From Akkermansiaceae bacterium (GTDB taxonomy: Bacteria > Verrucomicrobiota > Verrucomicrobiia > Verrucomicrobiales > Akkermansiaceae), in contig JBPOGF010000018.1 in the NCBI GenBank assembly GCA_051251915.1, positions 1-64,000 on the forward strand: DNA of 64,000 bases. The letters run 5' to 3'. The notes under the pieces are model-generated. The model did not search any database. It had not been told where the DNA came from and saw only the letters and a program-made list of their open reading frames with translations. The translations under genes and the position numbers were made by a program. Positions 8,120-54,047 of the stretch are shown in pieces (position 1 is the stretch's first letter; each line of letters starts with the position of its first letter).

Positions 8120-10288
8120 TTAGAAGGTGTAAGTAGCTTGCAAGTTAATGGAGCGGTCTTGACCTAGGAATGTGCTTGTGGTTGCAGGTCCGTAGGATGT
8201 GGTTGTTTGATTTGTTTGGACGTACTGTCTGTCGAATAGATTTGAGACATTGAGTTGGAAGTCCATGTCGTTCCATTTGTATCCGAGCATTGCATCAATC
8301 GTGGTGTGTGATGGAGTGTCGTATAGGTCTAGTCCATCTGAAGTGTTGCCGGTGAAGCGGACGCCGAGACCGGAGCGGAAGTTTGCTAGTGGTCCTTCTT
8401 CTGGTTGGTAAGTTACCCATGCTGATGCTTGGTGTTTAGGGACGCCTGCTAGGGCAGGAGATCCTGCAGTGTCGTTATTTTTGGTTTGTAGGTATGTGTA
8501 GCCTGCTAGGAAGTAGAAGTCATTATAACGATGGCGGATACCTAGTTCAGCACCGTTTGCTTCAACGCTGCTGGACTGAATGACTGCAATAGGATCTGCT
8601 AATACACGGTTTTCTTCTTCGATTCTGAAGTATGATGCTGTGATGAGCGTGTCTTCTTTCGGCATCCATTTAACACCGAACTCGTGTTGAGTTCCGGTCT
8701 TAGGCTTGAGTGCTGTAGTGGACTTACTATCGAAGCCTTGTGGTTCGAATGACTCGGCGTATGAGTAGTATGGCGAGATACCATGCGGTAGCTGATACAT
8801 GAGTCCAGCATCGAAGGAATAGTTTGTTTGTTTGTCCGTATTCTGAAGATTACTTTTTAACTCGTAGTGGTCGAAGCGTACGCCTGCAGAGGCTATGAGA
8901 TGGCCGATTTCTACATGATCGTGGAGGAAGATTCCGAAGAGTTCTTCCGTGGTGTTGAGGTTAGTAGATAGGTCTGGCAGTGTGGATGCTCCGTTGCCAT
9001 ATACAGGGTCAACAAAGTTGAGGAAACCGTTGTAGACGTATGGGAGACCGAAGAGCCCTGGGTTGGCAGGAAGTGTGTTGCGGTCACGTTTTGCTCTGGT
9101 GAAGTCTACTCCGAATCGGACATCGTGGTTTACAGATCCTGTTTCATATTTCCCATTAAGAACCATATTTCCTGAGAACACATCCATTTCTTGATCTGAT
9201 CCATAGAGCAGGCGGTGATAGTAGCCGTCTGGTGATGCTCCGAAGAATGCTTGTGCAACTGCAGGAGGGACGATGGTATTTTCAACATATTCAGCTGATG
9301 AATTCACATATCTCATGGTTGATGTGACGGAGTATGTTTCGTTGAACTTATGCTTGAAGATTGCGGAGACACTTTTTTGGTCAGTGTTGTAGCGGTCGAG
9401 GTTTGGCTCACCGCCGTAGCGCTCATTGGTTAGGGTGTAGCCTGGGATCTGAGTAGCCTCGTATGGGTAGAACTGGAGTGAGGGCTTGCTTTCATTTTCT
9501 TGGAGGTTCAAGAGTAATGATAGTGTTGTGTCCTCAGTAGGTTTCCAGGTGATGGAGGGCATGAGGAATCTGGAGTCGTCATTTACGAAGTCGACATAGG
9601 TATCTGAATTTCTGTAGTAACCTACGACGCGGAGGAAGAGGGTTTCTTCAGCATTGAGTGCTGTGTTGTAATCAAGACCTAGTTGGAAACGATCATCGCT
9701 GCCGTAGCTGGTCATGAGTTGATTACTGATGTTGGGGCCTGCTATTTTAGACGTTGTGTTAACGGTGCCACCAACTGTGCCGCGTCCGAAGAGGATAGAG
9801 GCGGGTCCTTTAATGAAGTCTACTTGATCAACCGCGTAGGCTTCTGTTGGGGTGTTGTTGTAGAAATTAAAGTTGTTCTGGAGGCCGTCACGGTAGTTGA
9901 GTGCTTCTAGGCCGCGGATACGGATGAAATCTTGGCGAGTATCGAGACCGAAGTAGCTGCTTTCAACACCAGGGACATAGCGTGCGGCTTCTTCTAGGTT
10001 CTGTGCGCCTCGCTGGGTGAATTGCTCACTGGTGACGGTTTCTACAGCACGTGGTGTTTCGAAGATGGAATATGGAAGTTTAGAACCTAGGCCTAGATCT
10101 GTATTAATGAATGGCTTAATCGCGTTATTCTCTGGTGATTGCTCTCCGATAACGGTTGATTGTTCAAGAGTTTCTAGGTTTTCTGCGGAAGATGAACTCT
10201 GCGCCGTTTGGGCTTGTGATGATACTGTAACGGCTAATCCTGTGGTGATTACCGCAGTTAGTTTTGGTATTAATGATTTCGTTTTCAT
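8120..10288 (-). CDS. TonB-dependent siderophore receptor
   Basis: Signal peptide, plug motifs (ETPRAVETV, IRIRG, KGPASILFG), NLFDRQY, and C-terminal beta strand ending YTF. Confidence 0.9.
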   Translation of the reverse strand: MKTKSLIPKLTAVITTGLAVTVSSQAQTAQSSSSAENLETLEQSTVIGEQSPENNAIKPFINTDLGLGSKLPYSIFETPRAVETVTSEQFTQRGAQNLEEAARYVPGVESSYFGLDTRQDFIRIRGLEALNYRDGLQNNFNFYNNTPTEAYAVDQVDFIKGPASILFGRGTVGGTVNTTSKIAGPNISNQLMTSYGSDDRFQLGLDYNTALNAEETLFLRVVGYYRNSDTYVDFVNDDSRFLMPSITWKPTEDTTLSLLLNLQENESKPSLQFYPYEATQIPGYTLTNERYGGEPNLDRYNTDQKSVSAIFKHKFNETYSVTSTMRYVNSSAEYVENTIVPPAVAQAFFGASPDGYYHRLLYGSDQEMDVFSGNMVLNGKYETGSVNHDVRFGVDFTRAKRDRNTLPANPGLFGLPYVYNGFLNFVDPVYGNGASTLPDLSTNLNTTEELFGIFLHDHVEIGHLIASAGVRFDHYELKSNLQNTDKQTNYSFDAGLMYQLPHGISPYYSYAESFEPQGFDSKSTTALKPKTGTQHEFGVKWMPKEDTLITASYFRIEEENRVLADPIAVIQSSSVEANGAELGIRHRYNDFYFLAGYTYLQTKNNDTAGSPALAGVPKHQASAWVTYQPEEGPLANFRSGLGVRFTGNTSDGLDLYDTPSHTTIDAMLGYKWNDMDFQLNVSNLFDRQYVQTNQTTTSYGPATTSTFLGQDRSINLQATYTF

Positions 10289-10341
10289 GGAATGATTATC
10301 TTGTGTTCTTAGGAGAGGACGTGGGCTGTAACATAATCACT

Positions 10342-10360
10342 ATTGAGACGCAATTGCAAT
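10342..10360. promoter_or_regulatory. Possible Fur-type or other iron-regulator operator
   Basis: Imperfect palindrome ATTGAGA-CGCAA-TTGCAAT about 55 nt upstream of the receptor start. Confidence 0.35.
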
Positions 10361-10790
10361 TAGGTGAGTATTTAGAATAACTGTTTGAATAGGATTTCGA
10401 TGGTTCTAAAAGTCAGTGGTTTAGGCGATCTACGGCTATTCACATTGGCATCGTTTTTTTACTAGAAACTTTTGTTTAGCGCATTTTATACGGTGGTGTT
10501 TTAGAATAGCCTTCGGGTTGGGGAGCATTGAACCACCAGCCTTTGTTGTTCTAGAGTCACGGATATTCAAGGACTCCTTCACGATATCTTGACATGCGCA
10601 GCAATGGTCCCCAGCGACGACAATGCTGGCTGCCTTTAGAAAATAGAACTAGGTTTGTTTCTTTTGGGGAGGCTTATCTTGACAAGAGAAGTGTCAGGTT
10701 TCAAAAGTGGTAGTGCTTTTTATATTCTGATGATTTATTCTATTTTCTTGTTACTTCATCTTGTTTTTTAGCCTTATTATTTAAAACATC

Positions 10791-11531
10791 ATGAAATTTC
10801 TATTTATTACTATGTGCATGGGGTCGATGCTTTCGGTCGCTTCTGCGGAGAAGGTTCCAGCCAAGACATTGGATTTATTGGCTTGGAAGTTGACTTTGCC
10901 GATTGTTAAGGTGGGGCAGAAGTCTGCGGTGGAGGTGAAGCAGCCTGGGCTTATGTCATTTAGTAATCCTGGTTATTTCTATACTGACGAGAAGGATATG
11001 GGAGTGGTTTTCCGTGCGTCTTGTGGGGGAAATACTACGCCGAATTCTAAGTATCCTCGGTGTGAATTACGCGAGATGACTGGTGATGGGCGGGGGCGGG
11101 CTTCTTGGGAGACTGGTGGTAAGGAGGTGCATACGATGACGATGCGGGTAGCGATAACGCATACTCCAGAGGTGAAGCCACATGTGGTGTGTGCGCAGAT
11201 TCATGATAGTGAGGATGACTTGATCATGGTGCGTCTGGAGGGGAAGCATTTATTTGTGGAGCGTAAGCCGCATGAGGATGTGTCGATCAATCGTGATTAT
11301 GTTTTAGGGACGCCGTTTGATCTTAAGATAGAGGCTCAGAATGGGGGTGTGAAGGTTTGGTATAATGGATCTCAGAAAATGGACTGGGAGGTGGATGCGA
11401 AAGGGTGCTATTTTAAAGCGGGATGTTACACACAGTCTAATATCCAAAAAGGTGACTCTGAAAAAGCGTACGGCGAGGTTAAGATATACAGCTTGGAGGT
11501 GAAGCATGAGAAACTAAAGCAGGAGCCGTAA
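10791..11531 (+). CDS. Polysaccharide lyase family 7 (alginate lyase-like)
   Basis: Signal peptide and PL7 motifs RCELRE, QIH, YFKAGCYTQ. Confidence 0.9.
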   Translation: MKFLFITMCMGSMLSVASAEKVPAKTLDLLAWKLTLPIVKVGQKSAVEVKQPGLMSFSNPGYFYTDEKDMGVVFRASCGGNTTPNSKYPRCELREMTGDGRGRASWETGGKEVHTMTMRVAITHTPEVKPHVVCAQIHDSEDDLIMVRLEGKHLFVERKPHEDVSINRDYVLGTPFDLKIEAQNGGVKVWYNGSQKMDWEVDAKGCYFKAGCYTQSNIQKGDSEKAYGEVKIYSLEVKHEKLKQEP

Positions 11532-11646
11532 GCTTATTTTATTAACAGAAAAATCAATGGAATTAGTTGGGAGAAAGTTTATGTTAAATCAAGCAAAACA
11601 GTCTCGCAACCGCGCTTAGTAAGCAGTAAAACAACGTTATCAAATT

Positions 11647-14592
11647 ATGAAAAAGAATTTACCCCTCATCGCCACTTTGTCAGCCGCAGCTATTGCTGGC
11701 GGGATAAGTGTGGCTCAAACGCAGGCACCTGATGCGAAAGTTAAGATCGAAACTAAAGTTGAATCTAAAGACCAGACTGAGAAAAACCTTAGCTCTGCGA
11801 AGTCAGATACCTCACGAGCTAAAGGCACGGCGCGGAAGTGGGCGCAGGAGCAGTCTGATATTAAGGCTGATGGAAAGACGCTATACGGCACATTGGAAAA
11901 TGGGATGCGTTATGTCATTCATAAGAACGCGCTTCCGCCGGAACGTGTTTCATTCCGACTTCATGTGGATGCGGGGTCACTGAGTGAGTCTGATTCTCAG
12001 CGTGGGGTGGCGCATTTTCTTGAGCACATGGTTTTCAATGGAACAAAATCATTTCCTGATGCTACTAAGTTAGTGCCGCAGATGCAGCGACTTGGGATTG
12101 CCTTTGGAGCTCATGCGAATGCTTATACTTCGTTTGATGAGACTGTTTATATGCTGGATCTTCCTGATGTGAAGAAATCTACTATTGATCTCGCTTTTAA
12201 TGTGATGGGTGATTTTGCAGATGGTGCGCTTCTTACTGATGAGGAGATAGATGAGGAGAGGGGAGTTATTTCGTCTGAGAAGACTTCACGAGATTCGATC
12301 AATATGCGGATGATGGAGAAGCAGTTTGAGCATTTGATGCCAAATTCTTTGTTGCCTAAGCGTTTTCCGATAGGGACTGATGAGGTTATAGCTAAAGCTC
12401 CGCGTGCTGAGTTTGTGGATTTTTATACACGTTATTACACGCCTGAGAAGATGACCTTTATTGTGGTGGGTGACATTGATGTGGCTGAGATGGAGCAACG
12501 AGTTCATGATCATTTTGGTGGGATTAAGAATCCTGCTGAGCCAGGGAAGCCTGGGACTGTGGGTGATGTATCAGGTGCGAAGGGATTCCACACAGCGGTC
12601 TTTTCTGACAAAGAACTTACCTCTACTGATGTGTCGTTGATTCAGGTTAGAGCTAAGGAAAAGGTGATTGATTCGAAGGCGAATCGTGCAGAGAAGCTTC
12701 CGTTGGGGATAGCTCATGCGATTATTAATCGCAGATTTTCAAGGTTGGCGAAGAAGGAAAATGCGCTGATCACTAGTGGTTCAATAAGCTCGTCCTTGTT
12801 CTTCCGTGAGGCTGAGATTGGTAGCATTGATGTCACTGCTAAAGATGGAAACTGGCAGGCGGTGGTGCCAGTGTTGGAGCAAGAGCTACGCCGTGCGGTG
12901 GAGCATGGTTTTACACAATCTGAGATTGATGAAATCACAGCGGGTATGATGAATAGCTATGAGCAGAATGTGGTGAGAGCTGCTACTAAGAAGACTGATT
13001 CAATTGCGTCTTCAATCGCTAAGCATATTCATGGAGATTTCGTTTATTCAACGCCGGAGGATGATCTTGCTATTTTCCAAGAGAATTTAAAGTTGGTTAC
13101 TCCTGAAGCTTGTCACAAGGCGCTCAAGGATTTCTGGAACACTGAGGATATGACGTTAGTTCTAAGTATTCCTGAGGAGCCAGAGAATGCGGAAAAGTCA
13201 CTTGCTGCACTCTATCAGCGCTCCAAGTTAGCGAAAGTAGAGGCTGAAGTTCAGAAAGAGGTGGCTGAATTTGGGTATACTGATTTTGGCAAGTCTGGAA
13301 CGGTAGAGAGTAACAACCACATTGCGGATTTGGACATCTATCAGTTAGAGTTTAGCAATGGAGTTAAAGTGAACTATAAGAAGACGGACTTTGATAAAAA
13401 CCAAATTTTGATTAGTTCAAGTTTTGGAACTGGTAAGCTAGGGATGCCACAGGATAAGTCAGGCTTGGATATGTTGGCTGGTGCTGTTGCGAATGGTGGT
13501 GGGTTAGGAAAGCATAGTGCTGATGATCTCCGCACGTTACTTGCTGGGAAAAATGTTGGTGTAGGTTTAGGGATCGGTGATGATTCATTTTCTATCGGTG
13601 GTGCAACTACTCCGGATGATTTAGAACTTCAGCTCCAGCTTCTTTGTGCTTCTCTAACAGATCCAGGATTCCGTCCTGAGGCTGAGAGACAGTTCAAGGC
13701 TCAGTTGCCGATGTTATTCTCACAACTTAAGCACTCAGCTGGGGGTGCACAGGCTAAAATGTCTGGGTGGCTTCACGGTGATGATGGTAGATTTACAGTT
13801 CCAACCATAGAACAAGCGCAGGCATTGGGCACTGCGGATGTGGTTAATTGGATGAAGCCTCAGATGCTTGAGAGTGCATTGGAGATAGGGATTGTGGGTG
13901 ACATTGATACAAAGAAACTTATCCCGCTTCTAGCTAAGACAGTTGGTGCGCTTCCAGCACGTAAGCCAGCGGAAGAGGTAGCTGACTCACTTAGGGCGAT
14001 TACTATTCCTGAGACGCCAGTGACTAAGAAATTTGGTTTTGAGAGTAAGGTTCCTACTGCGGTATCTATCGTAGGGTGGAAGGCTGAGGATAATACTGAT
14101 CACGATGTTAAGCTTGCTAGACGTGCGGGTATTCTCGCAGAAATCCTTAGTGATCGTATGCGTGTGAAACTCCGTGAGGAACTTGGTGATGCTTATTCAC
14201 CTGGTGCGGGATCACAGTTATCAGAAACCTATAAGAACGTAGGGTTTGTTCTGGCCTATAGTCCGGTGAAGCCGGAGGACTTAGATAATGTAAGCGAAGT
14301 GATCGTAGCGCTTGGAGCTAAGTTTGCTAAAGAAGGGGCTACTGAGGATGAACTTAAGCGTGCGCTAACTCCTCGTATTGGAATGCTTACGAAGTCGCTG
14401 CGACAGAATTCTTATTGGTTGGGTAGTGTGGTAGCTGAATCTCAGACGAAGCCTTATGTGCTGGACTGGGCACGTGGTAGAGATGCGGATTATAAATCGA
14501 TCAATCTAGAGGATATCAATGCTCTGGCTAAGAAATACCTCACTAGCGACCGTGCTATGTCTATTAAGATAGCTCCGGATGCGGCTAAGTAG
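11647..14592 (+). CDS. M16 family zinc peptidase (PqqL-like), exported
   Basis: Inverted zinc motif HFLEH, NAYTSFDETVY, LREELGDAYS; signal peptide. Confidence 0.9.
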   Translation: MKKNLPLIATLSAAAIAGGISVAQTQAPDAKVKIETKVESKDQTEKNLSSAKSDTSRAKGTARKWAQEQSDIKADGKTLYGTLENGMRYVIHKNALPPERVSFRLHVDAGSLSESDSQRGVAHFLEHMVFNGTKSFPDATKLVPQMQRLGIAFGAHANAYTSFDETVYMLDLPDVKKSTIDLAFNVMGDFADGALLTDEEIDEERGVISSEKTSRDSINMRMMEKQFEHLMPNSLLPKRFPIGTDEVIAKAPRAEFVDFYTRYYTPEKMTFIVVGDIDVAEMEQRVHDHFGGIKNPAEPGKPGTVGDVSGAKGFHTAVFSDKELTSTDVSLIQVRAKEKVIDSKANRAEKLPLGIAHAIINRRFSRLAKKENALITSGSISSSLFFREAEIGSIDVTAKDGNWQAVVPVLEQELRRAVEHGFTQSEIDEITAGMMNSYEQNVVRAATKKTDSIASSIAKHIHGDFVYSTPEDDLAIFQENLKLVTPEACHKALKDFWNTEDMTLVLSIPEEPENAEKSLAALYQRSKLAKVEAEVQKEVAEFGYTDFGKSGTVESNNHIADLDIYQLEFSNGVKVNYKKTDFDKNQILISSSFGTGKLGMPQDKSGLDMLAGAVANGGGLGKHSADDLRTLLAGKNVGVGLGIGDDSFSIGGATTPDDLELQLQLLCASLTDPGFRPEAERQFKAQLPMLFSQLKHSAGGAQAKMSGWLHGDDGRFTVPTIEQAQALGTADVVNWMKPQMLESALEIGIVGDIDTKKLIPLLAKTVGALPARKPAEEVADSLRAITIPETPVTKKFGFESKVPTAVSIVGWKAEDNTDHDVKLARRAGILAEILSDRMRVKLREELGDAYSPGAGSQLSETYKNVGFVLAYSPVKPEDLDNVSEVIVALGAKFAKEGATEDELKRALTPRIGMLTKSLRQNSYWLGSVVAESQTKPYVLDWARGRDADYKSINLEDINALAKKYLTSDRAMSIKIAPDAAK

Positions 14593-14624
14593 GTTTTATT
14601 AATAAGTATATAGTGCCACCTCTT

Positions 14625-14674
14625 AAAAACTTACCCCTTGTAGAAATTATATCTGTGAGGGAGTAAGTTTTTTT
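14625..14674 (+). terminator. Rho-independent terminator
   Basis: AAAACTTACCCC...GGGAGTAAGTTTT hairpin followed by a T run, after the M16 gene. Confidence 0.65.
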
Positions 14675-15545
14675 GTTTTTAGAGGATTTTGTTGGATGGG
14701 TGTAGTGATAAAGGGGGGGATCCTTCGGTTATCTTGTTCAAGCCTGCTGTAATGTTTGTTTCATTGTGTTCACTTGTTCTAGCACAGATTGGTAAGAATG
14801 TAGGATTTGTTCAGGCATATAGTCCGAGTAAGCCTGAGGGCTGAAGTAACGTCGGCCTAGTGAACGTAAATCTTGGCTAGAGAAGAAGCGACTGAAGGTG
14901 GTGCTCAAGCTCGCTATAGCGCCGAGCATAGGGATATTCTCGGAGTTATTCCCCAAAACTCTTACTAACTGGGTTGTGCTGGTAACGAGCTCACAGACGA
15001 GGCCATGCTTGTAGGAATGGTCTAGTGGTCGATATTTAGACTACTTCAAGCTATAAGACGGAAGAGGTTAACGCCTTAGCTGTGATATGTTTCATGAGTG
15101 AGTGGTCATTGACTATTAAGATAGTTACTAAGTCTGTGTAGTCATAAGAATCAGTATTATATTACAACATGTTTCACTATTCTTTATATTACTACTATAT
15201 TTGTAATATTGTTTCACGTTGGTTTTTGGGTCTGTGTTTTTAATCTGTCAATACGTTGTGTTGGCTTTATTTGATGAGTTTTATGCTGTCTATCAATGAT
15301 TTATGTGAATTGTAGATATTTTGTAATTTTAGATATTAAGTATATTTTTATTATCATTAAAAGTTAATTTTTGCAAAATCACGAATAAATATCGCCATTA
15401 TTGGTATTTTTTATAAAACGCGATGACGCCGATATTTAAGAAATCAGCAACATGTTGGTTCATTAATTTTAAACGTCTAATCGAGAAAAGACTAATTCAA
15501 TAGTGAGTTACGAATTTTCAAAACAATCATCCCTAAAATAATATA

Positions 15546-44967: not shown

Positions 44968-45145
44968 AGGTGGATTACGGTTCTTTCGGGAGTTTGGTGT
45001 TCTGTCACAGTTGTGTATATATTTCATGTGTGGTTTTTGAATAGACCATCCATGATAGGTTTCTGATGCTTTAATTATGACTAAAATGAACTATTTGATA
45101 GTTTGTGATATTTCTCTGTGTATAGTTTTCAGAACTTTAATCTCC

Positions 45146-46669
45146 ATGACTTCAAAACTATCTATTTTTCTTCTTAGTGTCGGCTTATCTGGCACTGTTC
45201 TCTCTAATCCAAATGGGGAAGCTGTGTTTAAACAGCTATGTTCGGCTTGTCATGGGTTAGATGGCAAGGGTGCTGGTGAAGGTGCTTTTCCTCCTTTAGA
45301 TGGTTCGGAATGGGTTAAAGGTAGTCCGGATAGGATTGCTCAAATTCTGCTACACGGGCTGACTGGGCCGATTGAGGTGAAGGGAAAAACTTATGATTTG
45401 GTGATGCCTCCGCAGGGGAATCTGACAGATCAGCAGAGTGTTGATGTGATTAACTATGTGGTGGGTAAGTGGGGAGATAAGAAGGGTGGCTATACTTTGG
45501 CTGCTTATGAGAAGGCAGGTAAGAAATCTAGTGACCGGACTGAGGCGTGGACAGCGGATGAGCTTCTGAAGTTGTATCCTTTAGCAGATAAACCTAAGGA
45601 ACAGTCTCATTTGGAGAACTTATTGATGCATTCGTATAAGGGGACTTGGAAGTTGATTCCAGATTTCTCGGAGTTAGAGGCTGGTGCTACTGAAGAGGAG
45701 CATGATGGTTTCTTGTCTTTGGAGAAGATTAACCAGAAGCACTTTTTTGGGTTGGTTTGGGAAGGTGAGTTGAGGATAGAGAAGAGTGGTCAGTATGAAT
45801 TTGAGATCGATGGAGATGATGCTGTTAGGTTAGTGATCGATGGTAAAAAGTTGGCTGAAGTGACTGGACTAGGACCGATGAATGGGAGTAGGAAGAAGAA
45901 GGGAGTGGTTGCTTTGGAGGCGGGACTGCATGATTTCAGGTTCGAATATTTGCAGAATAGATCTAATAAGGGGATTCTGGCTAGGTTTAAAGATGTGAAG
46001 AGTAAGAAGTGGATGTGGCTTACGAAAAAGGTGGCACAGAAGAGAAAAGCACAGAAGATCCCTGTGATTGATCTCACTCCTAAGGATGGGCGAGTGAGAG
46101 TTTATAATAACTTTATTGTAGGTTCTTCTGCGCGAGGTTTGGCTGTTGGTTTTCCGGTAGGGAATCATTATTCATATAGTCCAGATAGGGGGACTGTGGA
46201 CCAGCTGTGGAGAGGCAAATTCATAAGTGGAGGGAGGCATTGGACTCAGAGAGGGAAGGGGTTTGAGGCTCCTTTGGGTAAGTTGGTTTCTGGGGTGTCT
46301 GATAATAAAGCTAGTTGGAAGCTGGATGGGAAAGATGCTGAGATTAGTTATCTAGGATATAAGCTAGATGCTGATGGGAATCCGATGTTTAGGTATACTG
46401 TAAATGGTGTGGAGGTTCAAGATGAGATGACTGCCTCTGAGGCTGGGTTTACGAGATCGGTGAGTTTTCTTGGTAAGCCTAGTGAGTCTACCCAATTGGT
46501 CTTGTGTGAAAAATTTAGTGGTAAGGTTTCTGGATTATCTGCTGAGGTTAACCCGAATTTCACTATTTCAGTTTCTGACAAAAATGGAGCATTGAAGGCT
46601 CAAGGGAAGCAACTCATTTTATCTAACATTTCTTCAACTCTTACTATCGAATACCAATGGAAAAAATAA
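45146..46669 (+). CDS. Cytochrome c plus PA14 domain exported protein
   Basis: Heme motif CSACH, FPPLDGSEWV, MPPQ; PA14-like segments DGDDAVRLVIDG and GLHDFRFEY. Confidence 0.85.
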   Translation: MTSKLSIFLLSVGLSGTVLSNPNGEAVFKQLCSACHGLDGKGAGEGAFPPLDGSEWVKGSPDRIAQILLHGLTGPIEVKGKTYDLVMPPQGNLTDQQSVDVINYVVGKWGDKKGGYTLAAYEKAGKKSSDRTEAWTADELLKLYPLADKPKEQSHLENLLMHSYKGTWKLIPDFSELEAGATEEEHDGFLSLEKINQKHFFGLVWEGELRIEKSGQYEFEIDGDDAVRLVIDGKKLAEVTGLGPMNGSRKKKGVVALEAGLHDFRFEYLQNRSNKGILARFKDVKSKKWMWLTKKVAQKRKAQKIPVIDLTPKDGRVRVYNNFIVGSSARGLAVGFPVGNHYSYSPDRGTVDQLWRGKFISGGRHWTQRGKGFEAPLGKLVSGVSDNKASWKLDGKDAEISYLGYKLDADGNPMFRYTVNGVEVQDEMTASEAGFTRSVSFLGKPSESTQLVLCEKFSGKVSGLSAEVNPNFTISVSDKNGALKAQGKQLILSNISSTLTIEYQWKK

Positions 46670-48153
46670 TATTAACAGGTTTGACGGGGCTATTGCTTAG
46701 CCAGGCGGCGGTAGCTAATTTTAAGAAGGGAACAGCTTTACCTGATACTAGTGGTCAGTCTGAGTATTATGTTACTGAGAGTATTCCTCTGCCTAAAGGG
46801 GAGGTGATGGAGATAGGTTCTATCGCGCTTATGGCTGATAAGAAAGTGGCTGTTACTACACGGAGAGGTGATGTGTGGGTGTGCTCTGGAGCTTATGCGA
46901 AAGATCTCTCAGGAGTGAAATGGAATAGGGTTTTCAATGGGGCTCATGAGCCTTTGGGGATGTTTGAGAAGGATGGGTGGCTGCATTTTATGGATCGGGA
47001 TGCTTATGTGCGCATTGGTGATACGGATAAGAACGGTAGCTATGAAACCTATGAAGTGATTTCTAATCAATGGGGGATTAATGGGGATTATCACGAGTAT
47101 AATTTTGGATCGACGCCTGATAAGGATGGGAATGTGTATGTGGTGCATTGTCTAACAGGATCTGCTACTGCTAAATCTCAATGGCGAGGATGGGCTCAGA
47201 AGATAGCTGCTGATGGGACTACTACGCAGTTTGCCTCTGGGGTTCGTTCTCCGGGTGGGATTGGTTATAATGCTAGTGGTGATATTTTCTATACTGACAA
47301 CCAAGGGTTATGGAATGGGACTTCTTCGTTGAAGCATTTGAAGCCGGGTGGGTTTATGGGGAATCCGACAGGTTTGGTTTATTATGATGATGCTAAAGGT
47401 GGGATTATGGGGGAGAGGCCTGCTGATCCTGTAGACGGTTCTACGCTGGCTATTGAAGGGAAGAAAATTCCGCAACTTGTTCCTCCTGCTGTGCAGATGC
47501 CGCATGGTAAGATAGGGCAGTCGCCTACGGCGGTGATCACTGATAAGACGGATGGGAAGTTCGGGTTATTTGGTGGGCAGGTGTTGGTGGGTGAGCAGAC
47601 TCATTCACAGGTTCAGCGTGTTTATTTAGAGCAGGTGAATGGAGTGTATCAGGGAGCTGTTTGGCATTTTCTTGGTGGATTCAAGAGTGGGATTATTCCT
47701 ATGAGATTGTCCGGTGATGGAACTTTATTTGTGGGTGGTAGTAGCCGAGGCTGGGCATCTGCGGGTGGGAAGCCATTTAACTTTGAGCGTGTTCGATGGA
47801 CAGGGAAAGAGCCATTTGAGATGGAAAAGGTGGAAGCTCTTAAGGATGGATTTAAGATTACTTTTACTGAGCCTGTGGCTAATCTTGATGAGATCAAGGT
47901 GGAGAATGTGAACTGTGAAGCGTGGACGTATCAGTATAGGTCTAAGTATGGTAGTCCTGAGATAGAGCAGGTGAAGCCGAATGTGGTATCAGTGAGTGTG
48001 GATACTGAGACTAAGCAGAGTATTACGATCAAGCTGGATAAGATGACGCAGGGTCATGTGCATCATCTATCGCTTAGAGAGATCAAGAATAGTGCTGGAA
48101 AGGCACTGTGGCATCCAGAGGTCTATTATACGCTTAATGAGATTCCTAAATAA
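46657..48153 (+). CDS. Exported beta-propeller protein (sugar/sorbosone dehydrogenase-like), likely partner of the cytochrome c
   Basis: GDYHEY, SGVRSPGG, YTDNQG, YYTLNEIP; overlaps the end of the upstream gene. Confidence 0.7.
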   Translation: MEKIILTGLTGLLLSQAAVANFKKGTALPDTSGQSEYYVTESIPLPKGEVMEIGSIALMADKKVAVTTRRGDVWVCSGAYAKDLSGVKWNRVFNGAHEPLGMFEKDGWLHFMDRDAYVRIGDTDKNGSYETYEVISNQWGINGDYHEYNFGSTPDKDGNVYVVHCLTGSATAKSQWRGWAQKIAADGTTTQFASGVRSPGGIGYNASGDIFYTDNQGLWNGTSSLKHLKPGGFMGNPTGLVYYDDAKGGIMGERPADPVDGSTLAIEGKKIPQLVPPAVQMPHGKIGQSPTAVITDKTDGKFGLFGGQVLVGEQTHSQVQRVYLEQVNGVYQGAVWHFLGGFKSGIIPMRLSGDGTLFVGGSSRGWASAGGKPFNFERVRWTGKEPFEMEKVEALKDGFKITFTEPVANLDEIKVENVNCEAWTYQYRSKYGSPEIEQVKPNVVSVSVDTETKQSITIKLDKMTQGHVHHLSLREIKNSAGKALWHPEVYYTLNEIPK

Positions 48154-48180: not shown

Positions 48181-49185
48181 TTATTTAATAATGATCACCA
48201 GGGCTCGGTGGTCGCTGGCGGGGTCACCTGGTGGAGTGTCTAGGACGTAGGAGCCTTTCTGGTCGATACTGGGGAGGAGTGCTGGGGAGGCGAATGCGAA
48301 GTCGAAGCGTGAGTATATGTCTTCTCTGGCCCAGTATTGTGTCCATTTGGTTCCTTGTTTGTCGAATAGCTCGATTGCGGTAAGTTTACTGGCTTTAGAT
48401 CCGCGCATCAGTCTGATAGTTGAGCTTCCTTTGGTGTCGTTCATGTCGCCAAATACGAGGACTTTTCTGTTTGGGTCTGATAATACGGCTGATGCATGGC
48501 TTCTTAGCAGTTGGGCTTCTTCGCGGCGGATTACGGCTTCATCATATTCGGCAATGGGGCGCTTGGACTTGAGGTGGGCACCTAGGAAACGGATGTTGCC
48601 TTTAGGGGTTTGTACTGTTGCATCGAGAATTCCACGGCGGATTTCGTGGTCTTGGCCTTTCATTTTGTAGGTGTATTTAGGCACGTTATGCATGTTGATA
48701 GGGTAGTGTGATAGGAGTGCCTGTCTGCGGTAGGGGTCTGGGCCTGATGAAAGGAATGTGTGTTGGAAATCGATTCCGGCCTTTTTGAGTCTAGTTTGTA
48801 AGTGATCTAGATCTTTTTGGGTGCCAATTTCGCAGACTCCTAGGATGTCAGGGTTGGCCCGGACGATGTTGTCGATGAGGGCTTTGATCTCGTGTTCTGG
48901 CTTAAATTGATCTGAGCTTCCTCGTCTCATGGTGAGGTAGTTTCTTAGATTGTAGGAGACAAACCGCAGGGGTTTGTCTTTGGTGTTGATATTGGAAGTA
49001 GTGACTACTTTGACTTGCTGTATGGGGTCGTCGACCTTTGGGGGGATGACCTTTGGAGGTGTAGGTTCAGCATACTGAGGGGGGCTTGCGGCCTCCCAGT
49101 CTGGTGTTTCTTGTTTCTTATTGCAGCTGCTCAGTAGAGCGCCAAGGGTGAATGCAAGTATTGTTTTGTAGCAGAATTGTTTCAT
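48181..49185 (-). CDS. Endonuclease/exonuclease/phosphatase family lipoprotein
   Basis: Lipobox LLSSC; SYNLRN, HLKSK, GDMND, FDF, ASDH. Confidence 0.88.
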   Translation of the reverse strand: MKQFCYKTILAFTLGALLSSCNKKQETPDWEAASPPQYAEPTPPKVIPPKVDDPIQQVKVVTTSNINTKDKPLRFVSYNLRNYLTMRRGSSDQFKPEHEIKALIDNIVRANPDILGVCEIGTQKDLDHLQTRLKKAGIDFQHTFLSSGPDPYRRQALLSHYPINMHNVPKYTYKMKGQDHEIRRGILDATVQTPKGNIRFLGAHLKSKRPIAEYDEAVIRREEAQLLRSHASAVLSDPNRKVLVFGDMNDTKGSSTIRLMRGSKASKLTAIELFDKQGTKWTQYWAREDIYSRFDFAFASPALLPSIDQKGSYVLDTPPGDPASDHRALVIIIK

Positions 49186-49253
49186 AAAATAAAAAAACCT
49201 CATTGGGTTATCCAATGAGGTGATCGTTAAATGTTGTATGTTCACGTAGTGAG

Positions 49254-49508
49254 TTAGTCTTCGGTTGAAGCTACTTTTTCCTTTGGTTCAACAGCTTTAG
49301 TAGTTTCTGTTTTGGCTTCTGTTTCGGCTCTGGTGATTTCACGTTCGAATTCATCGCGAGCGCGCTTGAATTCTCCAGTGCTCTTACCGATTCCGCGAGC
49401 AAGTTGAGGTAATTTCTTCGCTCCAAAGAGTAGAAGAACGATAAGGAATACGAGGATCATTTCCTGTCCTCCGAAGCTGAAAGCTAGTGTGTGAGTAAAG
49501 TCGCTCAT
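49254..49508 (-). CDS. tatA: Twin-arginine translocase TatA
   Basis: GGQEMILVFLIVLLLFGAKKLPQLARGIGKSTGEFK. Confidence 0.95.
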   Translation of the reverse strand: MSDFTHTLAFSFGGQEMILVFLIVLLLFGAKKLPQLARGIGKSTGEFKRARDEFEREITRAETEAKTETTKAVEPKEKVASTED

Positions 49509-49590
49509 GGATGGAAAGTAAGCGGGTTTTCAGGATTTAGCAAATGAATTTATTTCTGGGTGGCAGGGGATTAGTTTATTCATTCAGTAG

Positions 49591-49713
49591 CTATTTATCA
49601 GTAAGACAGTCTAGTAATTTCTTAGTTCCGAAAAAAAGAAGAACTATAATGAATGCCAAGATCAACTCTTGTCCTCCAAAGCTGAAAGCTAGTGTTTGCG
49701 TGTCATCTCTCAT
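49591..49713 (-). pseudogene. Truncated 40-aa tatA paralogue from a tandem duplication
   Basis: Translates as MRDDTQTLAFSFGGQELILAFIIVLLFFGTKKLLDCLTDK*; the upstream promoter region is duplicated too. Confidence 0.75.
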
Positions 49714-49800
49714 GTTGAAAAACTATATTGAGCTCTAGGACTAAGCAAATGAATTTATTTCAGGATGGTGGGAAATGACACTGTTTGATAAGAACTTGGC

Positions 49801-50628
49801 ATGATGTCATTACTTACATGGGGCAATGTTTTAGCCTGTATATTTATCCTTAATTTCACAGCTCATTTACAGGCATCTCCAGTCTGGATGAAGCAGTCTC
49901 CAGATGGGGCGAAGTTGTCTGAGCTCACTATTATTGGGACGCATAATTCTTGTGCGCTGCATGGTGGGGACTATGGGAAGTGTCAGAGTATTGGTTTAAA
50001 GGAACAGCTTGAGTCAGGGGTAAGGTTTATAGATGTTAGGTGTCAGTGGAGAGATGGGGATCTACATATTGTTCATGGGATAAGTGATCAGAAAATGCGG
50101 TTTAGTGAGGTGGCTGATATTTGCCAAATTTTTCTGAAGGAGAATCCTGGCGAGGTGATATTGATGTCGGTGATGGAGCAATCTAGCAGGGATAAGAAAA
50201 GGGGGGACTTTGGTAGAGCTTTTCAGAAGGTGATCAATAAGAATAAGAATCAGTGGTATCAGAAAAAACTTAGCCCTACGCTTGGGGATGCTCGTGGGAA
50301 AGTAGTGGTGGTTTCGAGGAATCGGGAAGTTGAGGGGATTCCTTGGAGGGCGTTTCGTGTTCAGGATTCGTTTTGGATCAATAAGGGAAATAGTTTGGAT
50401 GATAAGTGGAGTAAAGTTACTGAACATTTCAAGGGTGTGGGTGCTGGGGAGGAGCTGAGTATTAATTTTATAAGTTGTACAGGTATCATTAATCCGCCTC
50501 ACTTTACGGCGAGTAAACTCAATCCAAAGTTGATTAGTTACTTGAAAAAGCGGCGTGGTAAGAGACTGGGGATAGTGGTTGTGGATTTTTTCACGGCTGA
50601 GATGTTTCAGGTTGTCAATGCTGACTAA
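49801..50628 (+). CDS. Phosphatidylinositol-specific phospholipase C X-domain protein
   Basis: LTIIGTHNS, QLESGVRFIDVR, HG, PTLGDARGKVV, GIVVVDF. Confidence 0.88.
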   Translation: MMSLLTWGNVLACIFILNFTAHLQASPVWMKQSPDGAKLSELTIIGTHNSCALHGGDYGKCQSIGLKEQLESGVRFIDVRCQWRDGDLHIVHGISDQKMRFSEVADICQIFLKENPGEVILMSVMEQSSRDKKRGDFGRAFQKVINKNKNQWYQKKLSPTLGDARGKVVVVSRNREVEGIPWRAFRVQDSFWINKGNSLDDKWSKVTEHFKGVGAGEELSINFISCTGIINPPHFTASKLNPKLISYLKKRRGKRLGIVVVDFFTAEMFQVVNAD

Positions 50629-51919
50629 TGCTGGATTCTAGCAAGTGGTTTAGTTTTTCTGCTCTGTGTGGGTTTACCATTTTTATGAATGAGATCCGGC
50701 CTTGGAGATACTCAAGGAAGTTTGGGTGATTTGTGCGGTTTTCGGCTGCTAGTCCGTTGCGTTTTACGCGGTAGATGATTGCTTTTAATTGGTCGAATTC
50801 TGAGCGAGCTACATTTGCTTTGGTGTTTACTATTAGGCCTGCAAGTCGTTGTCGTTGGCCTGCTTTCATTACGCGGGTTTTGTCAGTATTTAGCCACCAG
50901 CCTTCTTCTTCGATGATTAGATTTACTAGGTTTTTTAAGCCATTGATTTTGGAGTCTTTGATTTTTATGGAACTGGAGAATGCTATGTCGTCAGCGTAGC
51001 GGGTGTAGTTTAGGTTTAGCTTCTGAGCTAATCCTGTTAGTCTGATATCGAGTTTGAATAGTAGTCTGTCTGCGATAGCGGGGGAGGTAGGGGCGCCTTG
51101 GGGTAGGTGGGCGCGCTCGTATTTCCAGTAGGCTGGTAGTTTTTCGTCTTTGAATCCGTGGGTGCAGAGGTGGGCGAGATACTTGGAGATGTGTGGTGGG
51201 TATCCGGCTAGGTGGAAGAGCGCTCTGACGCGGGGGCGATCAGCGGTGAGGAAGTAGTCTTTGAGGTCGAATTTGATGATGATTTGCTGTCCGATATGTG
51301 GCTCGACGTAGGTGACGATGGATCTTCCTTGTTGGAATCCATGTGAGCATGGATGCGGTGGGATGTGTGCTAAAATCCCGTCTAATACATAACGCTGGGC
51401 CTTTTTCATTTCCCATTTTGGGACTTCGAGCATTCGGGTTCCTCCGCTTTTTTTAGGAATTTTAGTTATATGATAGTGTGATAATTTGGATCCTATTTCG
51501 GCTGGTTTCATTTGGCCGCAGAACCAGTCTAGGTGCTCGACTGGTAGATCTAGCCAGTGAGCTAGTGCTCCTAGTGTCGTGATGCTGGGTACTTTCCAGT
51601 GTGCGGAGAGGAAGCGATCTGGAGACATTTTTACTTGGGTGAGATCTGGTGATCCGTTGAGATTTATTTCTCCTTCGTAGACTCCGTCCCTGTCTGCGTC
51701 TTGCTGGAGTTCTTCCCAAAGTTGGTTCTGATAATCTGTAATCCACTCGCTGAGTGCCCAGATGGATGGTCTGGATCCTTCGCCAAAGTGTTCTAGTAAT
51801 TTAGTTATGAAGTCCCCGAGGTATTGTTCATATGAAACTAATGGGCGCAGCCTCTCAATGATCTCCTGGGCCTCTAGTGGGCCACGTAGGATGATGGAAG
51901 CTAGTTTTTTAGAGTGCAT
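50615..51919 (-). CDS. Retron-type reverse transcriptase with a long N-terminal extension
   Basis: IPKKSGGTRML, HGFQQGRSI, FDLKDYF, LPQGAPTSPAIA, catalytic YADD, LNTDKT, and region Y variant QRLAGLIVN. Confidence 0.9.
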   Translation of the reverse strand: MHSKKLASIILRGPLEAQEIIERLRPLVSYEQYLGDFITKLLEHFGEGSRPSIWALSEWITDYQNQLWEELQQDADRDGVYEGEINLNGSPDLTQVKMSPDRFLSAHWKVPSITTLGALAHWLDLPVEHLDWFCGQMKPAEIGSKLSHYHITKIPKKSGGTRMLEVPKWEMKKAQRYVLDGILAHIPPHPCSHGFQQGRSIVTYVEPHIGQQIIIKFDLKDYFLTADRPRVRALFHLAGYPPHISKYLAHLCTHGFKDEKLPAYWKYERAHLPQGAPTSPAIADRLLFKLDIRLTGLAQKLNLNYTRYADDIAFSSSIKIKDSKINGLKNLVNLIIEEEGWWLNTDKTRVMKAGQRQRLAGLIVNTKANVARSEFDQLKAIIYRVKRNGLAAENRTNHPNFLEYLQGRISFIKMVNPHRAEKLNHLLESSISQH

Positions 51920-51930
51920 GGGTAGTGAGA

Positions 51931-52120
51931 AAAAATCATCACCAGAGCTAACCTATCTTATTGTGTTAAGACTTACTACCACGGAAGTGGTATGAGGTCT
52001 TGACTGCGTAGTGTCTAGTTTTTCTTGTCCTCAGGGGTTAACCCCTGAGAGGTATTTCCTCTGTGGTTTCAATCTAATGCAAACCATCAGAATACCAGTC
52101 TTAGCTCCGGTGAGATTTTT
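51931..52120 (-). ncRNA. Retron msr-msd ncRNA
   Basis: Inverted repeats of about 20 nt (52120-52101 and 51951-51931) enclose three hairpins; there is a G right after the 5' repeat (52100); the element ends 11 nt before the RT start. Confidence 0.8.
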
Positions 52121-52223
52121 ATGATCTATAGTTACCACTTACAGGTTGGCCTAACCAGAATAAATCTGTGATTAGGCTTCCGTTCTGGTTTACATTTTCT
52201 GCAACACCCTTTATTCGTAATGA

Positions 52224-54047
52224 ATGGCAGACGATATTATAGGGATTGATCTTGGGACGACGAATTCGGCGGTTGGTGTGGTGGAGAGTGGGTTTCCTAT
52301 TTTGTTGGCGAATGCTGATGGGAAGAGGATCACGCCTAGTGCGGTGAGTTATGAGGGGGAGGTGACTGTGGGGGCTGCTGCGCTGAGACGTAGGGGAGCA
52401 GGTGGTGCTGTGGTGACGAGTGCGAAGCGGTATATGGGGAGTCGGTATGCGGAGGTGAAGGATGATGATTTCTGTGTGCCTTTGAGTGAGGATGGTGAGG
52501 GGAATGTTGTGTTTGATGTTGGGGAGAGGAGTGTTTCTCCTGAGGAGGTGAGTGCGGAGATTTTGGGGTATTTGAAGGGTGTGGCGGAGACTCAGTTGGG
52601 GAGGAGTGTGAGTAAGGCTATTATTACGGTGCCGGCTTATTTCAATGATGCTCAGCGGACGGCTACGAAGCGTGCTGGGGAGATGGCAGGGCTTGAGGTG
52701 GTGAGGATTATTAGTGAGCCTACGGCGGCGGCTTTGGCTTATGGGTTGGATAAGTTGGGGATGGATGAGTCAGCGCGGGTTGTGGTTTATGATTATGGTG
52801 GTGGTACGTTTGATGTGTCTGTTTTAGAGATTAAGGAAGGGGTGTTTCAGGTATTGGCGACTGCTGGTGATACTAGGCTGGGTGGTGATCATATTGATGA
52901 GATTGTGGCGCAGTGGTGTTGTGAAGAGGTGGAGGGGCTGGAGTATGATGAGTTAGATAATCATGAGCGCGAGCAGTTGCTTGGAGCGGCTAGAAAGCTT
53001 AAGGAAAAACTTACCTCTGCTGATGGTGAAGATGGTGGGGAGGTGTTGCAGATTCCGTTTTTTAGGGCTGATGTGAATATTGATTTATCTCTATCGCTGG
53101 AGCAATTTAATAAGTTGATTCATGGTGAGATCTCGCGGACTGTTAGGTATTGTAAGCAGGTGCTGTTAGATGCTGATGTGACTGTTGATGCATTGGATAA
53201 GGTTATTTTGGTGGGTGGTAGTACGCGGATTCCTGCGGTTCAGGAGTTGGTGGAGAAGGTGTTTGGGATGAAGCCAGATACTAGTCAGCATCCGGATGAG
53301 GCTGTGGCTCTGGGGGCGGTGATTCAGGGAGGTATGCTGAGTGGGGCTTTGAGGGAGATGGTTTTGTTAGATGTAACGCCGTTGAGTCTTGGGATAGAGA
53401 CGTTGGGTGGGTTGATGAATGTGATTATTCCGCGTAATACGACTATTCCATGTAAGGCGGGTGAGATGTTTACGAATGCTGTGGCGAACCAGGAGTCTAT
53501 GTGTGTGCGGGTGCTTCAGGGGGAGCGTGAGATGGCGCGTGATAACTGGGAATTGGGAAGGGTTGAGGTAAGTTTTTCTCCGGCGGCGAAGGGGCAAGCT
53601 AGGATGGGGGTGCAGTTTGCGATAGATGAGAATGGGATTTTGGAGGTGCTGACGAGGGATGTGGGGACTGGTAAGGATACTATTTTAGAGATCAATAGTG
53701 CGGCTGTGGATGTGGCTGATGAGGCTGTGGAGAAGATGGTGACTGAGAGTGTGGATTACGCATTCGATGACATGGCTGAGCGTGTGTTTACGGAGGCTAA
53801 GCTGAAGGCTGAGGAGTTACTCCCAGCGGTAGATGCTGGGTTGGCGCAGGTGTCTGATGATATGGATCCGGAGGATCTAACAGAAATTCAAAGTGCGGCT
53901 GCTGCTGTGCGCGAGGCACTGCAAGGGGATAATGCGAATCAGCTTAAGGCGGCGGTTCAGAAGCTGGACAAATCTACTGAGCACATGGCTGCGGTTCTTG
54001 TGGAGAAGGCGATGGAGGCAGCGCTGATGAGGAAGATGGGGGACTGA
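52224..54047 (+). CDS. Hsp70 family chaperone (DnaK/HscA-like paralogue)
   Basis: IGIDLGTTNS, TVPAYFNDAQR, DYGGGTFDVS, LVGGSTRIP, DVTPLSLGIET. Confidence 0.92.
   Translation: MADDIIGIDLGTTNSAVGVVESGFPILLANADGKRITPSAVSYEGEVTVGAAALRRRGAGGAVVTSAKRYMGSRYAEVKDDDFCVPLSEDGEGNVVFDVGERSVSPEEVSAEILGYLKGVAETQLGRSVSKAIITVPAYFNDAQRTATKRAGEMAGLEVVRIISEPTAAALAYGLDKLGMDESARVVVYDYGGGTFDVSVLEIKEGVFQVLATAGDTRLGGDHIDEIVAQWCCEEVEGLEYDELDNHEREQLLGAARKLKEKLTSADGEDGGEVLQIPFFRADVNIDLSLSLEQFNKLIHGEISRTVRYCKQVLLDADVTVDALDKVILVGGSTRIPAVQELVEKVFGMKPDTSQHPDEAVALGAVIQGGMLSGALREMVLLDVTPLSLGIETLGGLMNVIIPRNTTIPCKAGEMFTNAVANQESMCVRVLQGEREMARDNWELGRVEVSFSPAAKGQARMGVQFAIDENGILEVLTRDVGTGKDTILEINSAAVDVADEAVEKMVTESVDYAFDDMAERVFTEAKLKAEELLPAVDAGLAQVSDDMDPEDLTEIQSAAAAVREALQGDNANQLKAAVQKLDKSTEHMAAVLVEKAMEAALMRKMGD

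Follow-up and report, generated by a model that had tools for sequence, protein, structure and literature searches.

A probable two-part retron of a described stand-alone lineage in an Akkermansiaceae bacterium

Retron function is known almost wholly from tripartite systems, in which the multicopy single-stranded DNA (msDNA) restrains a linked toxin. Here we describe a locus that carries a non-coding RNA and a reverse transcriptase (RT) and no evident effector gene, located in a 64,000-nt stretch of an Akkermansiaceae bacterium (positions 1 to 64,000 of contig JBPOGF010000018.1, assembly GCA_051251915.1), the whole of which we call the window. With a probability of about 0.85, we consider it a bona fide two-part retron of a stand-alone lineage. 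Such lineages have been catalogued before. Mestre et al. (2020, NAR; PMC7736814) distinguished 11 clades of retron RTs and 13 types of system, and described stand-alone (msr-msd)-RT cassettes for RT clade 11; in their passage on orphan retrons, the choice between unknown effectors acting in trans and another function is left undecided. In the SPIRE retron survey of 2026 (PMC13712802), the ‘OutgroupA/B’ RNA models serve to split clade 11 into two groups, A and B. The survey’s entry for clade11-A, which is enriched in Bryobacterales among other orders, bears no top accessory module, and its verrucomicrobial clade11, clade11-A and clade11-B entries appear without an effector and with unrelated neighbours. 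A preprint by Khan et al. (2024; PMC10849725), in which retrons of every RT clade were tested for RT-DNA, gives the highest levels for clades 2, 9 and 10, hardly any for clades 3 and 4, with ‘intermediate’ levels for the others; clade 11 goes unmentioned in that part of the text, and we have not counted it as proof of clade 11 msDNA. In a full-text literature search, we found no paper giving a function for clade 11 retrons.

The RNA gene (msr-msd, from a1 to a2) occupies 190 nt at 51931-52120 on the minus strand, with support from its fold, from covariation and from the covariance model R1 described below, and the RT gene (P0001, 434 aa, 50615-51919, minus strand) begins with the ATG at 51919. 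The coordinates that the initial annotation had given for the RNA elements and the RT start all agree with our reading of the minus strand. From 5' to 3' on that strand, the 5' arm of the closing stem, a1 (AAAAATCTCACCGGAGCTAA, 52101-52120), is directly followed by a G at 52100, the candidate branching G, which would act as primer according to established retron biology. Downstream of it come msr hairpin 1, a variable hairpin of 46 nt in the minimum free energy (MFE) fold (52051-52096), and msr hairpin 2 (52029-52050, UCUCAGGGG-UUAA-CCCCUGAGG; helix 3 of the alignment A4 presented below), which is the most conserved element and includes the perfect palindrome CTCAGGGGTTAACCCCTGAG at 52030-52049. 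The msd stem-loop, predicted to be the template of the msDNA hairpin, lies at 51965-52004 (helices 4 and 5 of A4; 51968-52001 in the initial annotation). Finally, a G at 51952, opposite the branching G and presumably the first templated base, directly precedes a2 (TTAGCTCTGGTGATGATTTTT, 51931-51951), the 3' arm that pairs with a1. The repeat search reported the two arms as 20 nt long, 80% complementary and 149 nt apart, and in the MFE fold they enclose three hairpins. A 211-nt stretch containing the RNA gave an MFE of -74.1 kcal/mol, against -44.8 +/- 4.2 in 200 dinucleotide shuffles (z = -6.9), none of which folded as well. No Rfam family matched the RNA gene at E <= 10: the scan of positions 49000-54000 returned two chance-level matches at this threshold (L17DE, 3.9; RMST_8, 9.1).

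The same RNA is found directly 5' of the RT in all five verrucomicrobial relatives, namely close orthologues in three same-genus genomes (72-74% RT protein identity), the copy in Oceaniferula spumae (51%) and a broken copy in another genome of the genus (G007). Across these six copies, including that of the window, ten of the 43 predicted pairs have changed on both sides with pairing kept. Hairpin 1 of the msr, which stands outside the consensus structure, is present in the four close orthologues, shorter in Oceaniferula and missing in the G007 copy. We built R1 from the six copies and ran it over 80 loci coding RT relatives from Acidobacteriota, Planctomycetota, Pseudomonadota, Myxococcota, Gemmatimonadota and Verrucomicrobiota. 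It matched 60 of them at E <= 0.014, each time upstream of the RT match and on its strand, with a full-length RNA in 50 of the 60; at the window RNA, the only copy that it found in the window, it scored 215 bits.

The resulting alignment A4 holds 62 RNA rows that were fitted to the model, which inflates its pair counts: 93.8% of cells pair, compared with 36-49% after the partners had been shifted by 1-3 columns, and 35 of 43 pairs show double changes, values attained by none of 500 shuffles. Even with an alignment that favours the structure in this way, the margin is large. Helix 1, formed by a1 and a2, has double changes in 18 of 19 pairs, with pairing in 95.7% of cells. Helix 3 has nine pairs with 96.6% of cells paired; its four G-C pairs are nearly invariant in the 62 RNAs, and two pairs show 11 and 17 double changes. 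As for the msd helices 4 and 5, 11 of their 12 pairs have double changes, and 95.6-99.7% of cells are paired. Besides, the column after a1 is a G in all 52 RNAs with a letter there, preceded by AA, and the column before a2, which UU follows, is likewise G in every one of 52. A figure legend of Mestre et al. (PMC7736814) marks ‘two opposing G residues’ in retron RNAs. The claim of a complete msr-msd is thus upheld by a conserved, covarying RNA with an a1/a2 stem and two opposing G residues, and covariation upstream of homologues, which had been named beforehand as a check, revealed a1/a2 repeats conserved 5' of the RT.

G-U pairs favour only the transcribed strand, while an A-C mismatch in the RNA becomes a G-T pair in a DNA copy, and the helices can therefore be read for the strand on which they act. 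In the closing stem we counted 66 G-U against 10 A-C among 845 cells, an excess that argues for selection of this stem as RNA of the minus strand, and helix 3 showed 90 G-U against 4 A-C among 558 cells. The msr part folded better than its complement in 55 of the 62 RNAs. Regarding the msd helices, 705 of 730 cells are Watson-Crick, with 5 G-U and 6 A-C, so that this stem is able to form in the RNA and in a DNA copy alike, and the msd part had no strand preference among the 62 RNAs (32 favour the complement, 27 the sense strand). This asymmetry matches what would be expected if the msr and the a1/a2 arms act as RNA and the msd is copied into DNA, for which it offers indirect support. It had been proposed that the 51968-52001 hairpin pairs better as the plus strand. 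As DNA, we calculated -7.5 kcal/mol for the plus and -6.5 for the minus strand, so the proposal holds weakly here (1 kcal/mol); the corresponding hairpin of one orthologue gave -8.7 and -8.2, respectively, and there was no systematic advantage among relatives.

The RT was placed within the retron RT lineage by PADLOC, by a profile search of the PDB and by Foldseek, whose best matches are all retron RTs, in line with the initial annotation. Pfam RVT_1 covers residues 154-352, and the translation contains the catalytic YADD motif at residues 308-311 (50987-50998, minus strand) and no C-terminal addition; Y308, A309, D310 and D311 are invariant across 107 aligned homologues. The best PADLOC profiles were RT_other (1.6e-116, 388 bits), RT_outgroup (1.2e-110, 368 bits; labelled ‘retron’ by PADLOC) and RT_XIII (2.7e-100), followed by other retron RT models, and at least the 25 best among the matches listed are retron RT models. 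A profile of the 107 homologues retrieved retron RTs as its 14 best distinct PDB sequences, with Ec86 first (7.8e-52). The AlphaFold (AF2) model of the protein (predicted local distance difference test, pLDDT, 95.1; predicted template modelling score, pTM, 0.90) returned retron RTs as its 17 best Foldseek matches (7v9x_A, E 1.7e-23, template modelling (TM) score 0.81 on the target), ranking above group II, DRT2, DRT9 and diversity-generating retroelement (DGR) enzymes. Systems of an RT plus RNA alone exist outside retrons, and one could argue that this locus is one of them (DRT2, DRT9 or the relic of a group II intron), given a weak match to the NCBIfam Drt2 model (31.5 bits, cut-off 390). However, DRT2, DRT9 and group II scored far lower than retron RTs by sequence, profile and fold, and the RNA has the a1/a2 stem and opposing G residues of a retron, so such an origin is very improbable.

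Within the retrons, the RT is well supported as that of a clade 11 stand-alone retron, the PADLOC models RT_other and RT_outgroup being equated with clade 11-A through the correspondence of names in the survey table and supplement (PMC13712802); the assignment thus draws on HMM (hidden Markov model) and model names, not on placement in the Mestre tree. Like the clade 11 cassettes, the locus matches both profiles near full length, N-terminal extension included, carries its RNA directly 5' of the RT, and belongs to a group with no recurrent accessory gene, whose hosts (Bryobacterales and other Acidobacteriota, Planctomycetota, Pseudomonadota and Verrucomicrobiota) are those given in the survey. 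All 75 RT ORFs (open reading frames) called in the 80 loci had RT_other first and RT_outgroup second, with 440-547 bits. The verrucomicrobial branch differs from them in its divergence (388 bits for the window RT, and a long stem in the tree) and in its extra, variable msr hairpin. The retron counts as a new divergent member of a described stand-alone lineage, not as a new kind of system.

We also compared the locus with the other systems closest to it. Type XIII retrons (Mx162, Mx65, Ne144 and Sa163, with WGR/HEAT-ARM and SWIM proteins) provide the next-best RT profile and share RT residues 90-145, but residues 1-89 are unshared, the locus has no SWIM or WGR, and R1 misses the type XIII RNA on contig C32 of the same genome. 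The RT of that C32 system, used as positive control, matched RT_XIII at 1.2e-171, while for the window RT this profile ranked third, at 2.7e-100. Ec86 (Eco1, type II-A), for which structures have been solved, is the best solved relative (TM 0.81-0.82, 27% identity) and follows the same RNA logic. However, its RT has 320 aa and lacks the 145-aa N-terminal extension, so that PDB matches begin near query position 140, and its effector is nucleoside deoxyribosyltransferase-like according to Mestre et al. (2020, PMC7736814). The Ec107-like branch of clade 2 (Retron-Eco5) is the other lineage reported without a recurrent accessory gene, but it is a distant match by RT (RT_Ec107-like, 1.5e-56). Neither a linked effector gene nor an effector domain fused to the RT, as a tripartite retron would have, was found at the window locus.

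A quick maximum-likelihood tree of 87 RTs, with SH-aLRT (Shimodaira-Hasegawa-like approximate likelihood-ratio test) support only, comprised 73 RTs from the loci (each 380 aa or longer), the window RT, its three orthologues, nine database matches and one type XIII outgroup; seven loci were left out, five without a called RT ORF and two with an RT ORF under 380 aa. It groups the window RT with the 73 locus RTs and apart from the type XIII RT. The window RT itself falls into a clade of 14 sequences of verrucomicrobial type, which has full support and a long stem. Phylum labels change five times on the tree, which is the minimum possible (mean of 30 when shuffled), kin sharing labels. The element seems to move mainly among related hosts.

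To examine the surroundings we used 25 genomes of the genus, among them that of the window. The retron is intact between the tatA-like gene and Hsp70 in four of the 25, including the window genome, and broken at another site in G007. The window has a divergent Hsp70 gene (52224-54047, plus strand) on one side and a PI-PLC-X gene (49801-50628, plus strand) convergent with the RT on the other, which agrees with the original description of the flanks in our ORF and Pfam reading; beyond PI-PLC-X lies a pair of tatA-like and EEP (endonuclease/exonuclease/phosphatase-family) genes (48181-49508). The other three carriers (G001, G003 and G006) have the RT at this site too, with Hsp70 on one side and, on the other, a tatA-like gene and then an EEP-family gene. 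In G018 and G008, tatA and Hsp70 are direct neighbours, about 295 and 165 nt apart, respectively, without an RT and with no RNA remnant detected by R1. From these empty sites, the element can be defined as an indel of about 1.6 kb with only the RNA gene and the RT. PADLOC found no retron effector among the 14 flanking proteins scanned, and no SWIM or WGR gene at the locus.

These comparisons bear on whether a neighbour, either PI-PLC-X or the tatA-like/EEP pair, is the effector. It is true that tatA and EEP follow the RT on the same strand in G001, G003 and G006, and that PI-PLC fragments adjoin the retron in G001. But tatA and EEP adjoin Hsp70 in G018 and G008 where there is no RT, and EEP is a core gene, present in 24 of the 25 genomes; in G007, some 1.5 Mb separate it from the broken RT. 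As for PI-PLC-X, which in the window separates the RT from tatA, it is convergent with the RT, its N-terminus is signal-peptide-like (secreted type), it is not in the G003 and G006 loci, it appears in G001 only as fragments on the opposite side of the retron, and it is also present in G011 and G009, two genomes in which the RT query gave no match. None of PI-PLC, tatA or EEP had a PADLOC match. A neighbouring effector is therefore very hard to sustain, and gene distribution has largely refuted it.

Some further features of this region were noted. The 3' ends of the RT and the convergent PI-PLC ORF share 14 nt (50615-50628). Between tatA and PI-PLC, the latter being specific to the window genome at this site, positions 49409-49768 contain a tandem duplication, with a period of 205 nt, that covers the 5' end of the tatA-like gene together with the region upstream of it (49409-49509 and 49614-49714, 78% identical; 49532-49563 and 49737-49768, 88%). 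G003 alone has a 607-aa ORF (L089, 5806-7629, plus strand) between Hsp70 and the retron RNA, whose N-terminus looks signal-peptide-like by eye from the untranslated nucleotides; we rejected it as an effector, as it has no Pfam or PADLOC match and is not in the other three loci. Small insertions seem to accumulate in the tatA-Hsp70 spacer as at a hotspot. Close to the retron, 45077-48153 has the look of another small insertion: here the genes for a 530-aa PA14/cytochrome c protein and for a protein of 498 aa without Pfam or PADLOC matches stand between the EEP gene and a 348-aa gene, and the latter two are adjacent in G001, G003, G006, G018, G008 and G012.

We then looked for a partner in the wider clade. 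BLAST clusters of 1,139 crude ORFs from the 80 loci showed none recurring beside the RT. We also scanned the nearest ORF of at least 100 aa on each side with Pfam, obtaining 96 families in 72 downstream neighbours and 71 in 70 upstream neighbours, none found more than twice and most of them housekeeping enzymes; these neighbours come from a simple ORF caller, which small or weakly conserved partners may escape. The Oceaniferula RT, for instance, lies between 6-phosphogluconate dehydrogenase (6PGD) and RecQ. According to these results and to the empty sites of the sister genomes, no effector is co-encoded with the RT, as had been proposed. The G007 copy (L092, 7986-9277, minus strand; contig C1, near 2.72 Mb) is a second lineage of the same stand-alone retron, with 46-50% identity, flanked by glutamate synthase and a YggS-like gene. 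A stop and a frame break interrupt its RT, and the RNA upstream keeps covarying a1/a2 arms.

The N-terminal extension of the RT (residues 1-145; 51485-51919, minus strand) consists of a four-helix unit (residues 2-73), a linker and two short helices. The whole clade conserves it, and its invariant positions are for the most part hydrophobic; W122 and W132 lead its conserved residues, followed by L6, A7, R23, D65, W108 and P111, among which there is no obvious catalytic set. None of the 14 best PDB sequences spans the first ~140 residues of the RT. Folded alone, the extension had a pLDDT of 79.7; Foldseek against the PDB gave no match at E <= 0.001 (best E 2.3), the best hits of a VIA search were YqeY and generic helical bundles (Z 5.0), under the stated noise level for helical models, and the ESM Atlas, queried with residues 1-150, offered unnamed clusters with a best score of 0.84, below the level for more than a lead.

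A complete type XIII retron is encoded elsewhere in the same genome, with three genes in a row on contig C32 (locus L093, minus strand): WGR_XIII (1044 aa, 12333-15467, PADLOC 4e-257), SWIM_XIII (554 aa, 10672-12336, 2.5e-217) and RT_XIII (506 aa, 8869-10389, 1.2e-171), the last with a 282-nt gap 5' of it, where its RNA should sit. The same system is found in G004 (SWIM 78% identical), and a distant relative of SWIM_XIII (25% identity, E 3e-17) lies on contig C9 of the window genome (61849-62955, plus strand) with no RT match adjacent. If the effector of the stand-alone retron is encoded elsewhere, the WGR/SWIM pair of C32 is the obvious candidate, being present in the same genome next to an RT that aligns with the stand-alone RT from residue 90 onward (33% identity), residues 90-145 of the extension included and 1-89 excluded. 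Against this, the SWIM protein occurs in only two of the 25 genus genomes (G000, that of the window, and G004), and R1 does not match the type XIII RNA. SWIM was not found in the retron carriers G001, G003 and G006, whose completeness is 58%, 77% and 94%, respectively; dependence on SWIM is accordingly unlikely, with the qualification that G001 and G003 are incomplete assemblies. We hold an effector at a distance to be possible but doubtful. The initial annotation had listed a fused, a distant or an absent effector: the fused one finds no backing in the extension, which has no enzyme-like fold and no invariant polar residues, a distant one would not be the type XIII SWIM, and an absent one is possible.

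Loss of the effector could also have left a decaying, neutral remnant of a tripartite retron. The presence of intact copies at the site in only four of 25 genomes and the broken copy elsewhere in G007 speak for such a remnant, and partner loss was suggested for the Ec107 branch by Mestre et al. (2020, PMC7736814). However, six phyla share the layout without an effector, as well as the RNA and the N-terminal extension, the hallmarks of catalysis and of the RNA do not vary, and the RT is under purifying selection. Among the orthologues, the nonsynonymous divergence (dN) of the RT is 0.16-0.22 and the synonymous divergence (dS) is saturated, so that the values of omega, 0.06-0.10 where computable, are rough; the N-terminal part behaves alike. 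A remnant is unlikely, and the element appears to be kept by selection, while dispensable at the scale of the genus.

Several observations weigh against the two-part retron, in addition to the fitting of A4 to its model, the roughness of omega, the simple calling of neighbour ORFs and the use of names to reach clade 11. R1 had no RNA match in 20 of the 80 related loci. NCBIfam retron models match the RT, all of them under their cut-offs (for example St85, 188.8 against 235). The motifs of regions X and Y are partly kept, with YVEPH (204-208) for NAxxH and LAG (359-361) for VTG; the H and the G, which are the most conserved residues of these retron motifs according to Mestre et al. (2020, PMC7736814), are invariant in the aligned homologues. 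The scan for sigma-70 promoters detected no site in 50400-52400. The broken G007 copy and the patchy distribution in the genus also fit a dispensable element. Finally, the production of branched msDNA is a prediction made from sequence alone.

For the two-part retron we propose the following mechanism, in which we have good confidence up to msDNA synthesis. The RT would bind the invariant msr hairpin (52029-52050), and synthesis would be primed from the 2'-OH of G52100. The msd would then be copied from G51952 towards the A-rich tract near 52012-52027, and the expected product would be a branched msDNA that contains the 51965-52004 hairpin and measures roughly 60-75 nt.

What the particle of msDNA and RT does is a more tentative matter. 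The reading we rank first, although we give it slightly less than an even chance, is that of an accessory, defence-like module with a read-out that requires a partner not encoded beside it, either a host factor or the RT’s own N-terminal module; partner dependence would explain why the RT tree follows host phyla. A domesticated, non-defence role is less likely, perhaps one chance among several, a self-contained RT-only system is a little less likely still, and a decaying relic comes last, at long odds. For clade 11 as a whole, we raise as speculation that its members are self-sufficient two-component systems, in which the N-terminal helical module may replace the effector or sensor, or link the msDNA with a core factor of the host. 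If they depend on a host factor, this would account for the host-phylum tree, the location at housekeeping-gene sites and not in defence islands, and the gain and loss within the genus.

In conclusion, the initial annotation had read the locus as an orphan retron, and it is right about the retron and the lack of a linked effector, but not about the rarity that it implied, as clade 11 cassettes had already been described. The discovery is modest, because the class and its missing effector are already in print in the descriptions of clade 11 cited above. What we add is a sequence-based, indirect sign that the msd is copied into DNA. The papers cited here catalogue stand-alone lineages, clade 11 among them, without explaining what they do. 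For that question this locus is a clean natural example, a compact unit of 1.6 kb with exact empty sites and clear RNA hallmarks, and the canonical type XIII retron residing in the same genome provides an internal contrast.

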